Sequence record: ON081052
DNA from: Escherichia phage vB_EcoS_SCS31
Direction: 5' to 3' (one strand)
DNA: 46,054 nt
This document shows, piece by piece, positions 25,385-46,054 of this stretch. A program made the position numbers and the translations under genes. A model generated the notes under the pieces. That model saw only the letters and a program-made list of their open reading frames with translations. It did no database searches and was not told the origin of the DNA. The first letter of the stretch is position 1, and the number at the start of each line of letters is the position of its first letter.

Positions 25385-25436
25385 TGGAGTAATCATATCT
25401 TAACTGTTAGGTTTGTCTTTAGCTATTCGTGCTATT
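25385..25436 (-). promoter_or_regulatory. phage promoter, palindromic motif class (minus strand)
   Basis: Reverse complement reads AATAGCACGAATAGCTAAAG ... TATGATTAC ... CATCAAAACGAAAC. Confidence 0.45.
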
Positions 25437-25679
25437 CAACCATCTGTTATATTTATCCCTCTCCTTGATTGCCTTTTCAAGTGACTTGAATCTTAAAAGT
25501 AGCGGCATACAGTCAACACCCATAATTAAGGATTCGTCGCAGCTATTTGCGCCAGTCAGCCAAAGAGAGAAGTATTGTTGATCGAGGCCGTAGTTCCTGT
25601 CTTTATTGACCCTAACGCTAACAACTTTAAATTTTAAACCAGCCAACTTAACCTTATCTATAAATTCTGACTTATTCAT
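25419..25679 (-). CDS. hypothetical small protein (start trimmed from track ORF)
   Basis: Track ORF N-terminus overlaps promoter copy at 25737; internal ATG 25679 with RBS GGAGCAA. Confidence 0.35.
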   Translation of the reverse strand: MNKSEFIDKVKLAGLKFKVVSVRVNKDRNYGLDQQYFSLWLTGANSCDESLIMGVDCMPLLLRFKSLEKAIKERDKYNRWLNSTNS

Positions 25680-25699
25680 CTTGTTGCTCCTTTTTAGTT

Positions 25700-25753
25700 T
25701 ACCTGGAAATGGTACATCACCCATGAGATTTGTCTTTAGCAATTAGTGCTATT
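25700..25753 (-). promoter_or_regulatory. phage promoter, palindromic motif class (minus strand)
   Basis: Reverse complement reads AATAGCACTAATTGCTAAAG. Confidence 0.45.
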
Positions 25754-33143: not shown

Positions 33144-33650
33144 TCAAATCGTGCTTTTTTTCTCTGCTTCTCTCTTTTTCTTATTCTCTTCTTTAATCTT
33201 ACGCCATGATCTGGCAGGCGGCTTTGTTGCTAACTCCTCTTTCTTAACAACTCTAAGCATTTCTCGACGGTCACAACGCAATGTTAAAGGCTTACCATTA
33301 CTATCAAATCGAAGGTCTGGACGAATGAAGCTAGCTCGATAACCCTCGCCTGTACGCTTGTACTTACCGTGTAATTTCTGCGCACCTTTAGCTGAAATCA
33401 TTCCGCGTTTACACCATTCAGAAACTACTGCATGTGTCACATTAGCGGCTTTTGCTAGCTTCGATTTACCACCATAAAAATCAAGAACAATCTCTAGCCG
33501 CGCGCGTAGCCCGGCTCTTACTTCATCTTTTAAAACATAGTAGCCTGAAGGTCGTTTGCGTTCTTTCTTGTCTTCGGTGCGATGTGTTCCGTTATTACCG
33601 TTTAATGTTCGCTTGTCAACTGCACCAGTTGATGCCGCAATTCTCGTCAT
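33144..33650 (-). CDS. HTH DNA-binding protein (Cro/YdaS-like, putative regulator)
   Basis: Segment GGKSKLAKAANVTHAVVSEWCKRGMISAKGAQKL resembles a helix-turn-helix; basic Lys/Arg-rich C-terminus. Confidence 0.4.
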   Translation of the reverse strand: MTRIAASTGAVDKRTLNGNNGTHRTEDKKERKRPSGYYVLKDEVRAGLRARLEIVLDFYGGKSKLAKAANVTHAVVSEWCKRGMISAKGAQKLHGKYKRTGEGYRASFIRPDLRFDSNGKPLTLRCDRREMLRVVKKEELATKPPARSWRKIKEENKKKREAEKKSTI

Positions 33651-41871: not shown

Positions 41872-42236
41872 TAATGTGCATGGCTTTATCTGGATGCTCA
41901 GCAACTGAAGTCCTGACCGGATTGATTGGAAGTAAACCAGATGTCACTGCGCAGGTTGGAGCGGCTAACAATAAAGTCGGCGTTGGTGCTTCCGTTAGTA
42001 GCGACTCCAGCAATTCCAGTGAAGCCACTGTAAGGGATTCTAAGGTTGGGAGCCTGGATAGCTCAAGCAGAAAAAAGACCTCCGACAATTCAATTAAGGC
42101 ATCAACAATCACTGCCGAAAAGATTGAGATTACAAACAATGAATCATCATCACTACCGTGGATTGGTACTGGCGTTATGTTCTGCCTGGTTCTTATTCTT
42201 CTGGCAATTATCTTAAGACGTAAAAAAGCCCCTTAA
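41847..42236 (+). CDS. unimolecular spanin (T1 gp11-like)
   Basis: N-terminal lipoprotein signal with lipobox LSGC and a C-terminal transmembrane segment (VMFCLVLILLAIIL) in one 129-aa protein. Confidence 0.6.
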   Translation: MLKWIAALVMCMALSGCSATEVLTGLIGSKPDVTAQVGAANNKVGVGASVSSDSSNSSEATVRDSKVGSLDSSSRKKTSDNSIKASTITAEKIEITNNESSSLPWIGTGVMFCLVLILLAIILRRKKAP

Positions 42237-42252
42237 TAGGGGCTATATTTTT
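42222..42252. terminator. bidirectional terminator between lysis genes and minus-strand genes
   Basis: AAAAAAGCCCCTTAATAGGGGCTATATTTTT. Confidence 0.55.
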
Positions 42253-45402: not shown

Positions 45403-45959
45403 ATCTCAATCCTCAAATAAATGGCAAGCATTCGACGCAGCCAAGCCCATCACAGCACATGAATTCATCTTCTGACTGGAACTGCTTTGCTAAATCAATG
45501 TCTAGCCTTCCGCGCAACACAAGGTCGGTGTAATCTTCATTAAGCCCAATCAGTGCGCACTCGTTACGTAACTCATCTTTATTCTTTTTCATTTATCCTG
45601 GCCTTTTAAATTATGACGCTCTCTCAGAACTTCAACCCATTCTTGCGCGTCATTCTCTCTCATGAAGAAACTTAACTTTGGGTACTTGTGAAACCCTTTA
45701 AGTTCAACTATCCAATGGCCACCTTCGTAACTATAACTAACTTTCTTCTCTGTCATTTTGTTACCTTTTGAGTTTTTTTTGTTATCGACATCTCTTCAAC
45801 GTACTCGCTACAACTCGGGATTTTACTCCCGGCCCGGCATCCTAACAAAAGGACCCGCTCGGCGCTTTGGTGGGTGAGGTAACGCTTCCTCACATTGCGC
45901 GGTATCATTTACCCTTTTTAGTCCCTTTCGGGAGTGACTCAGAGTCTGCTACCGTGTCG

Positions 45960-46015
45960 ATGAAATGAAGTATACGCACATCGATTCAATATGTCTTTAG
46001 CAAAAAGTGCTATTT
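45960..46015 (-). promoter_or_regulatory. phage promoter, palindromic motif class (minus strand), heading a long leader
   Basis: Reverse complement reads AAATAGCACTTTTTGCTAAAG. Confidence 0.4.
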
Positions 46016-46054
46016 ATCAGATTACCCAGAACCACTGGTATCATAAAGGCATTA

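Follow-up and report, generated by a model that had tools for sequence, protein, structure and literature searches.

Comparative evidence for a conserved 178-nucleotide structured RNA domain in the minus-strand operon leader of an Escherichia phage identical to vB_EcoS_ACG-M12

Introduction

A 21-nucleotide (nt) direct repeat, aaATAGCACnnnTTGnTAAAA, has been described in phage TLS, where copies stand about 76 nt from start codons, and has also been seen in T1, Rtp and Rogue1; no function was assigned to it (PMC11447400). The present report concerns one copy of this repeat in Escherichia phage vB_EcoS_SCS31 (record ON081052), and a structured RNA domain predicted to lie between that copy and the first gene of the minus-strand operon. 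The window analyzed was the complete genome of 46,054 base pairs (bp), which is a 100% match to Escherichia phage vB_EcoS_ACG-M12 (NC_019404/JN986845; Drexlerviridae, Braunvirinae, Guelphvirus), and ACG-M12 is used throughout as the reference for identity.

Structured leaders are familiar from the host, since 5'-terminal stem-loops stabilize E. coli messenger RNAs (mRNAs), as in the 5' untranslated region (UTR) of ompA. No report of a non-coding RNA (ncRNA) from T1-like phages of E. coli was found in the literature searched, nor was any description of the present element found in Rfam or in that literature. An initial annotation of the window had proposed a structured non-coding leader RNA ahead of the minus-strand operon. 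The proposal stood up to comparative analysis, in that predicted pairs were kept by compensatory changes, the annotated gene gp01 failed as a gene and leaders were short at 12 other copies of the repeat and in other Drexlerviridae. These comparisons give good support to the conclusion that the locus holds an undescribed, strongly constrained RNA domain of 178 nt rather than the protein gp01.

Results

Structure and conservation of the RNA domain

The RNA locus occupies a divergent intergenic region, with the minus-strand operon (annotated gp01, gp02 and on to gp10) on one side and a plus-strand operon, which begins with gp78 (ATG at 528), on the other. Base 46054 was taken as joined to base 1 because the homologous region is internal in the T145P1 and G8 records. 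The fold obtained with RNAalifold consisted of a closing helix, P1 (AUCGACA/UGUCGAU), and five arms (Table 1), and the element is single-copy in the genome. The GC-rich character noted in the initial annotation was evident as a G+C content of approximately 50% in the leader region compared with 43-44% genome-wide. Of the two hairpins listed there, TCCC-TTTC-GGGA was found where it had been placed, at 45922-45933 (P2b), while GTGAGG/CCTCAC is real (P3a) but lies about 10 nt from the position of 45864-45884 that had been given for it. The single-sequence fold had an energy of -59.8 kcal/mol (z = -2.56), which is mildly unusual.

Table 1. Coordinates in the window of the RNA domain, its parts and the adjoining features
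Feature	Coordinates	Strand	Sequence and pairing	Basis or remark
T1-family direct repeat	45996..46014	minus	AATAGCACTTTTTGCTAAA; palindromic core TAGCA-N5-TGCTA	upstream element of presumed promoter
-10-like hexamer	45969..45974	minus	TATACT; 22 nt past the repeat's TTGCTA	predicted start at about 45962/45961
Structured RNA domain	45784..45961	minus	178 nt, P1 5' strand to P1 3' strand	covariance model R1, 245 bits
P1 5' strand	45955..45961	minus	AUCGACA; pairs with 45784-45790 (UGUCGAU)	closes domain; covers predicted 5' end
Arm P2/P2a/P2b	45901..45953	minus	P2, 45950-45953 with 45901-45904; P2a, 45941-45945 with 45911-45915; P2b hairpin, 45930-45933 with 45922-45925, capped by GAAA tetraloop 45926-45929	compensatory changes in P2 and P2b; switches in P2a
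Arm P3/P3a	45862..45900	minus	P3 (GCGC/GCGC), 45897-45900 with 45862-45865; P3a hairpin GUGAGG-AAGCGUUA-CCUCAC, 45888-45893 with 45874-45879, then CCACCAAA linker	RNAalifold prediction
Arm P4	45835..45857	minus	CGGGUCCU / AGGAU-G-CCG, loop UUUGUU	two compensatory pairs
Arm P5	45812..45834	minus	GGCCGGG / CCCG-A-GUU, loop NNNAAAAN	folding prediction; stem invariant
Arm P6	45797..45810	minus	UAGCG-AGUA-CGUUG	predicted; C-G to U-G in two sequences; weak support
A-rich unstructured linker	45757..45783	minus	holds gp02 ribosome-binding site AAAGG, 45764-45768	unpaired in minimum-free-energy fold
gp01 (D861_gp01), annotated coding sequence	45753..45908	minus	51 amino acids	overlaps RNA; judged mis-annotation
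gp02	45589..45756	minus	55 amino acids	first genuine open reading frame; always adjoins RNA

Pairing statistics were based on 23 loci that comprise 18 distinct sequences. By blastn, the region was present only in the close relatives ECH1, four Veterinaerplatzvirus T145P1 genomes, G8 and IMM-001; additional loci came from two protein searches with gp02 homologues followed by contig look-ups, and one more, L211, from a pattern match in metagenomes. A covariance model (R1) built for the element and scored on all loci placed the RNA directly upstream of a gp02 homologue in 23 of 23 loci, with scores of 215-243 bits for the 22 loci other than the present one. Among 918 pair cells from the 18 distinct sequences, 98.5% held standard pairs as opposed to 36-44% when partners were slid, and none of 500 shuffles reached the observed pairing percentage or covariation score. 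Conservation of pairing in relatives, which the initial annotation had named as a check on its proposal, was therefore evident from these cells as well as from double changes in P1, P2, P2b and P4. Seven pairs were changed on both sides, of which six are credible (one each in P1 and P2 and two each in P2b and P4); the pair that nominally closes P5 is not a real one. Thus, alignment columns 9 and 177 in P1 changed from C-G to A-U in four distinct sequences, while the corresponding changes were from A-U to G-C in P2, from C-G to U-A at two positions of P2b and, in P4, from U-A to C-G (columns 112/125) and from C-G to U-A (columns 113/124). Switches of the U-A/U-G or C-G/U-G type were noted in P2a, P2b, P3a, P4 and P6, and three sequences had G-C to G-U changes in P3a. 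The structure is thus kept by compensatory substitutions, as is expected of a structured functional RNA.

The domain was 178 nt long in all but one of 19 sequences, the exception (L219) having a single 1-nt insertion in the loop flanks of P5. Within the loops, UUUU of P4 and AAAA of P5 were invariant while their neighbors varied, freely so in the flanks of P5, and these invariant runs are compatible with a loop-loop contact or with recognition by a protein. Across relatives, the RNA was 88-99% identical to that of ACG-M12. For the adjoining gp02 gene, by comparison, identity was as low as 72% at the nucleotide level in IMM-001 and 52% at the amino-acid level in L211, in which the RNA was still 90% identical. 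In the lineages measured, the linker from RNA to gp02 was 19-28 nt long, with variation in sequence and ribosome-binding site (RBS) as well.

Compensatory changes of this kind would also keep hairpins of single-stranded DNA, and the opposite strand folds equally well. The element could accordingly be pictured as a primosome-assembly or single-strand initiation signal, or as an origin structure, next to an iteron-like region at 130-400; in keeping with such a role, a ten-fold enrichment of GTTAC/GTAAC and an AT-rich tract occur about 200-500 bp away across the record junction, and the operon encodes a DUF3987 helicase. However, the boundaries of the domain coincide with the predicted start site and with the canonical leader described below, and the RNA is missing from related phages with the same replication genes. 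The predicted structure also contains seven G-U pairs, and pairing was 99.0% on the transcribed sense as opposed to 87.9% on the antisense; derivation of the structure from the sense strand biases this comparison, but switches of the U-A/U-G type likewise favor the transcribed sense. An element acting as DNA is considered very improbable.

Annotated gp01 and the adjoining gene gp02

The RNA domain is overlapped by annotated gp01, and the leader counts as long only if this gene is discounted. The comparative data justify doing so. The ATG of gp01 becomes ATA or ACG in G8, T145P1 and the IMM-001 lineage, an internal GTG of the same frame is lost in L207 and, depending on lineage, indels of 1-2 nt in the 3' A-run cause the reading frame to stop, to fuse to gp02 or to shift. 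The 22 variable columns are split 5/8/9 over codon positions 1, 2 and 3, which is no bias, and on reading the aligned sequences most substitutions in the frame are radical (E to L, L to P and S to F). In PHROG and Pfam, gp01 matched no family, no credible Shine-Dalgarno sequence precedes it and the annotators of ECH1 and G8 left it uncalled. On the other side, ACG-M12 and ECH1 both have an uninterrupted open reading frame (ORF) whose stop codon overlaps the start of gp02 in the sequence ATGA, and nucleotide conservation keeps the frame open from the internal GTG in many relatives. With both codons lost and the ends of the ORF dependent on lineage, a real protein-coding gene as annotated in GenBank has only the slightest probability; gp01 was rejected as a gene on the combined grounds of start loss, frameshifting indels, lack of codon-position bias and lack of a family, and the GenBank annotation gp01/D861_gp01 should be removed. 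With gp01 discounted, the long leader of the initial annotation was confirmed, at about 206 nt from the predicted start (45962/45961) to the gp02 ATG at 45756.

The alignment of gp02, by comparison, showed synonymous changes and a conserved core, and homologues with 52-94% identity had the RNA upstream in every fetched locus. No PHROG or Pfam family matched gp02, and an AlphaFold2 model of beta3-alpha topology (predicted local distance difference test score of 84) gave no significant Foldseek match in PDB or BFVD. The range of the RNA is narrow but the RNA is not rare, one cluster of gp02 alone comprising 81 contigs.

Sequence constraint greater than that of the neighboring protein is what would be expected of an RNA fitted to an invariant partner, and it figures in the main rival to a leader acting in cis, namely a stable ncRNA of about 180 nt that acts in trans after being cut from the 5' UTR (e.g., by RNase E in the A-rich linker), possibly in complex with gp02. 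Such an RNA would bind or decoy a host factor, either for host takeover or against RNA-targeting or RNA-sensing defence. The fold is closed, its two ends being joined in P1, and the A-rich linker behind it is unstructured and differs in length and sequence between relatives, an arrangement that suits excision; the RNA is also an accessory cassette, missing from most Drexlerviridae and first after the promoter, and no expression platform was found. On the other hand, no terminator is present to set the 3' end, no similarity to host RNA, transfer RNA (tRNA), a CRISPR repeat or a known decoy was found and complementarity to the phage genome was at chance level. A trans-acting ncRNA or RNA-protein complex is regarded as a tentative possibility, behind which a riboswitch, a DNA-level element, an antitermination signal and a coding gene all trail.

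The T1-family repeat and the presumed promoter

The repeat upstream of the RNA reads AATAGCACnnnnTTGCTAAA on the minus strand (46014..45996) and TTTAGCAAAAAGTGCTATT on the plus strand, and it matches the TLS consensus in the direction of transcription. As reported in the initial annotation, a promoter-type repeat copy is present here (45996-46014), and the putative promoter is one of 13 copies found in the window within three mismatches (1305, 2115, 13124, 18845, 25735, 33662, 36162, 37203, 39121, 39690, 40778, 44814 and 45996), compared with 0.02 expected by chance. All 13 copies are co-oriented with the surrounding genes and have a common layout in which the repeat is followed by about 22 nt, a TATAGT-like -10 box, CATCGAAACGAGA, an RBS and ATG. 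Copies stand before tail genes as well as before small "early" genes, and the label "early" is unproven for the minus-strand operon. Relatives keep the -10 box as TATACT or TACTAT, and in all RNA-bearing lineages it stands 6-7 nt before CATCGA; the 5' strand of P1 is therefore predicted to be the first nucleotides transcribed.

Distances from repeat to start codon were 71-89 nt for the 12 other copies (two of these being measured to in-frame starts judged better placed than the annotated ones) whereas the distance for the copy at 46014 is 258 nt to the ATG of gp02 and 106 nt to the annotated ATG of gp01, so that the spacing of about 76 nt seen in TLS does not hold for it. This copy is thus a natural outlier for testing the role of the T1-family repeat. 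With regard to start codons at other copies, the annotated starts of gp76 (1329-1460) and gp39 (25419-25724) fall in or just past the layout of repeat and promoter, while in-frame ATGs at 1380 (gp76) and 25679 (gp39) combine a good RBS with spacing of the canonical length (about 75 nt) and look like the true starts. The center of the palindrome in the repeat is about 42 nt upstream of the predicted transcription start, which is where a class-II activator would bind, and the annotated transcriptional regulator gp29 (33144..33650) is a candidate for binding it.

The leader as a cassette

The canonical short leader at the other 12 copies is ATCGAAACGAGAGG...ATG. In the Drexlerviridae phages MM01, Rogue1 and BEK6, the same repeat stands about 45-50 nt from the first ORF, and no match of the covariance model to the RNA was obtained in these phages even with filters off. 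The metagenomic locus L211, which was the single true homologue from a pattern scan of JGI metagenomes, has a leader that opens with ATCGAAACG, and the sequence that follows P1 in this locus, AACGAGAGG, matches the latter part of the canonical leader, the two pieces representing the two halves of that leader. The gene past the gp02-homologue region of L211 resembles the first gene of Rogue1. These features suggest a joint insertion of RNA and gp02 into a short leader of the canonical type, which would now supply P1.

The genes behind gp02 vary between loci (L215-L218 and L211) and include ORFs of 58, 88 or 92 amino acids, an HNH endonuclease and a homologue of Rogue1 gp74. RNA and gp02 stay next to the promoter while the later genes differ, and a variable accessory region therefore lies behind a fixed cassette. 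The position of this accessory cassette, which includes gp02 and directly follows a promoter, is one that host-takeover or counter-defence functions typically occupy.

Searches for related elements and regulatory parts

The Rfam scan suggested in the initial annotation was negative, as no family in Rfam 15 reached its gathering threshold for the element and only tRNA-Arg at 3487-3558 passed in the genome. Matches obtained in E-value mode were noise (bit score/cut-off of 21.8/42 for CRISPR-DR17 on the plus strand, 15.7/46.7 for c4-a1b1 and 17.3/61 for HIV_PBS). ARAGORN identified no tRNA or transfer-messenger RNA (tmRNA) in the region, the only tRNA in the window being at 3487-3561. Searches of E. 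coli genomes and plasmids by blastn gave no match to the element, pattern scans (exact and degenerate) gave only chance matches in IMG/VR and none in GTDB genomes, and tandem repeats were not found in the element.

Several specific candidates were rejected. A tRNA/tmRNA-like element was excluded by the negative results in the region of both ARAGORN and the Rfam tRNA model, and a CRISPR repeat mimic (RNA anti-CRISPR) by a DR17 match that was below threshold and on the opposite strand, together with the lack of a blastn match in E. coli genomes. A type III toxin-antitoxin RNA did not fit an element that is single-copy and free of tandem repeats, with no terminator and with a 55-amino acid neighbor, gp02, that has no family. 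Antisense action on the phage genome was not indicated, as complementarity of 10-11-mers equaled the shuffled expectation. A possible internal sigma-70 promoter, TTGTTA-17-TAAAAT (45848..45820), was at chance level and the last T of its -10 box was replaced in 6 of 18 sequences, while the potential of the P4 loop (CCUUUUG) to pair with the gp02 RBS (CAAAAGG) was not kept in the IMM-001, L209, L210 and L211 lineages.

The fold itself resembles that of an aptamer. In position (5' UTR), in its P1-closed junction with covarying stems and in its near-invariant junctions and loops, the element would suit a novel riboswitch, that is, a multi-helix aptamer for a host metabolite or signal that controls gp02 and the operon. 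The GAAA tetraloop and the invariant UUUU and AAAA loops, which could kiss, recall large aptamers such as the lysine riboswitch. However, neither a terminator/antiterminator nor a conserved alternative pairing of the RBS was found to serve as expression platform, linker and RBS differ by lineage and no Rfam riboswitch model matched at E <= 10. The taxonomic range is also very narrow. A riboswitch is accordingly judged improbable.

The position of the element directly downstream of a promoter-like element, at the head of a 3.7-kilobase (kb) operon, would likewise suit a processive antitermination signal of the lambda nut/boxB, HK022 put or RfaH ops type. In this regard, P2b (UCCC-GAAA-GGGA), with ACUCUGA before it, resembles a boxB-type hairpin, and CGGTAGC at 45948-45954 matches the core of ops (GGCGGTAGnnTG). 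However, no terminator-like site that could be overridden was found inside the operon, boxA-like bases are paired in P2a where they covary as a helix, no N-like protein was identified and both put and nut are far smaller than the element. The ops-like core becomes CGGTGCT, with RNA-compensating partners, in the IMM-001, L209 and L210 lineage. Taken singly, the RfaH ops element was rejected because only CGGTAGC matches (7 of 12 positions) and is lost in that lineage, and a lambda-type nut site because the boxA-like ACUCU is paired in P2a with wobble switches, the loop is a tetraloop and not a pentaloop and N is missing from the proteins identified. Antitermination as the role of the element is highly improbable.

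Sequences bordering the two operons

No terminator-like site was found in the interval from the RNA to gp02, nor elsewhere in the minus-strand operon ahead of 42244. The operon ends at 42227-42244, a terminator-like hairpin (AGCCCCTTAATAGGGGCT) with T-runs on both sides that has the features of a bidirectional intrinsic terminator and lies between the convergent spanin gene and gp10.

On the plus-strand side, the gp78 operon is preceded by a sigma-70-like promoter, TTGTCT-17-TATAGT, at 457-485, and no copy of the T1-family repeat was found ahead of gp78 in the repeat scan (three mismatches or fewer). The gp78 side thus has a plain sigma-70-like promoter without the repeat, and the divergent operons may therefore use different promoter classes. 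Homologues of gp78 in related loci carry Pfam DUF7174. Between the operons, at 130-400 of the window, GTTAC/GTAAC occurs eight times in 320 nt, or about 25 per kb compared with 2.4 per kb genome-wide. Four of the eight copies are GGTTACA, and they flank an AT-rich (TTA)n/(TA)n tract at about 249-272. This iteron-like region, which is continuous with 46054, is a candidate replication origin or regulator-binding region.

Discussion

The function favored here for the 178-nt domain, with moderate confidence, is that of a cis-acting, stabilizing, partner-binding leader that sets expression of gp02 and of the operon behind it. Transcription would start near 45962 from the repeat-type promoter, which would place the RNA domain at the very 5' end of the transcript, and because no terminator follows the RNA, it is probably co-transcribed with gp02 and the downstream operon. 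By pairing the first nucleotides of the transcript, P1 would shield the 5' end from 5'-end-dependent decay (RppH, RNase E). The near-invariant loops and junctions (AAGCGUUA, CCACCAAA, UUUU, AAAA and AAGAGA) would form a tertiary fold that is recognized by a specific partner, most probably a protein, and the domain would act in cis on how the accessory gene gp02 and the downstream operon are expressed. Near-invariance beyond that of the neighboring protein gene, together with fixed length, implies a precise molecular partner.

Several points weigh against this reading or against parts of it. The opposite strand folds equally well (z = -2.68), so that folding energy gives no strand discrimination and alone proves little. 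P3, the core of P5 and most of P6 are invariant, hence their pairing is not tested by covariation, and a few cells are mismatched (three in P3a and two in P4). The co-occurrence of RNA and gp02 in 23 of 23 loci is biased, since all metagenomic loci except L211 were found through gp02 homologues. The promoter role and the start site are predictions from sequence, and the function of the repeat was left open in the description of TLS (PMC11447400). No conserved pairing between the RNA and the gp02 RBS was found and the linker varies in length and sequence, which leaves an effect on translation in cis without a visible mechanism. Finally, a near-invariant six-helix fold of 178 nt far exceeds the needs of 5'-end protection, and the essential function of the domain is probably another one.

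A broader proposal, which we consider rather unlikely, is that the element represents a new functional RNA class in virulent coliphages, being either ligand-sensing or catalytic or the RNA half of an RNA-protein accessory module formed with gp02. If this were true, a module of RNA and gp02 might neutralize a host defence or take over a host RNA-binding machine, near-invariance then reflecting the fit to an invariant host target, and an element that occupies the corresponding slot in Rtp would make promoter-proximal RNA cassettes a wider, unrecognized feature of coliphage operons. Under the favored leader reading as well, the element, if transcribed, would be a well-defined structured RNA without known relatives in T1-like E. 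coli phages, which are easily handled.

The Rtp genome (NC_007603) has about 400 nt of non-coding sequence with two copies of the repeat before rtp75. A piece of about 95 nt from this sequence (L009 776-870, minus strand; NC_007603, approximately 45975-46069) is 85-88% identical in unrelated coliphages of Seuratvirus and Vequintavirinae, at L212 1201-1295 (WildeMaa) and L213 1201-1288 (UPEC06). In those phages it lies in stretches without annotated ORFs or with only doubtful small ones, between divergent genes in the case of WildeMaa, and it folds into hairpins in which CCGG/CCGG is replaced in compensatory fashion by CCAG/CUGG; no Rfam family matched. The Rtp element is like the ACG-M12 RNA in occupying the slot after the leftward repeat-promoter of a Braunvirinae phage and in being non-coding and structured with a compensatory change, but it differs in length (about 95 nt) and in fold, and it was rejected as a homologue since the covariance model did not match it. 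A sub-motif of 17-19 nt, UGAGUMACUCCCGAANAGGG, is common to P2a/P2b of ACG-M12 (45922-45945) and to L009, L212 and L213, with an alignment score that only equals the best of 200 shuffles; it may be due to chance or represent a common recognition hairpin. That the corresponding slot of Rtp is filled by an unrelated but structured element is a hint that coliphages may repeatedly carry RNA cassettes close to promoters.

In common with large junction-type riboswitch aptamers such as the lysine riboswitch (RF00168), the ACG-M12 element has a 5' UTR location, a P1-closed junction of about 180 nt with covarying stems, conserved junctions and possible loop-loop contacts, whereas it lacks an Rfam match, an expression platform, a known ligand and all but a very narrow distribution. 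Like lambda nut and HK022 put, it is a promoter-proximal structured RNA of a phage operon with a GNRA-type hairpin, but it is much larger, its boxA-like bases are paired, the operon is without internal terminators and no N protein was found. The c4 RNAs of P1 and P7 and the CI RNA of P4, which are processed from the 5' part of the operon transcript, are likewise structured RNAs that come first in an operon and are co-transcribed with the genes downstream, as is predicted here, and a hairpin followed by CCACCA in the ACG-M12 element is loosely reminiscent of RNase P substrates. The c4 and CI RNAs, however, belong to temperate phages and immunity functions, unlike the present element, for which the C4-target family c4-a1b1 (RF03163, C4 clan) scored only 15.7 bits compared with a cut-off of 46.7 and target sites in the phage were not above chance.

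Parallels also exist with ompA-type 5' stabilizers and with the TLS repeats. With the former, the element has in common first nucleotides that are predicted to be paired (P1), a long 5' UTR and an unstructured RBS region; those stabilizers are simple hairpins under little sequence constraint, whereas the ACG-M12 element is modeled as a six-helix domain of 178 nt with near-invariant loops. As in TLS, copies of the repeat in ACG-M12 are co-oriented with transcription, and here they are followed by a -10-like box and a conserved leader. Unlike the typical TLS repeat at about 76 nt from the start codon, the copy at this locus is 258 nt away because the 178-nt RNA intervenes. The element is thus a new RNA family of a familiar general kind, namely a structured element embedded in a phage leader.

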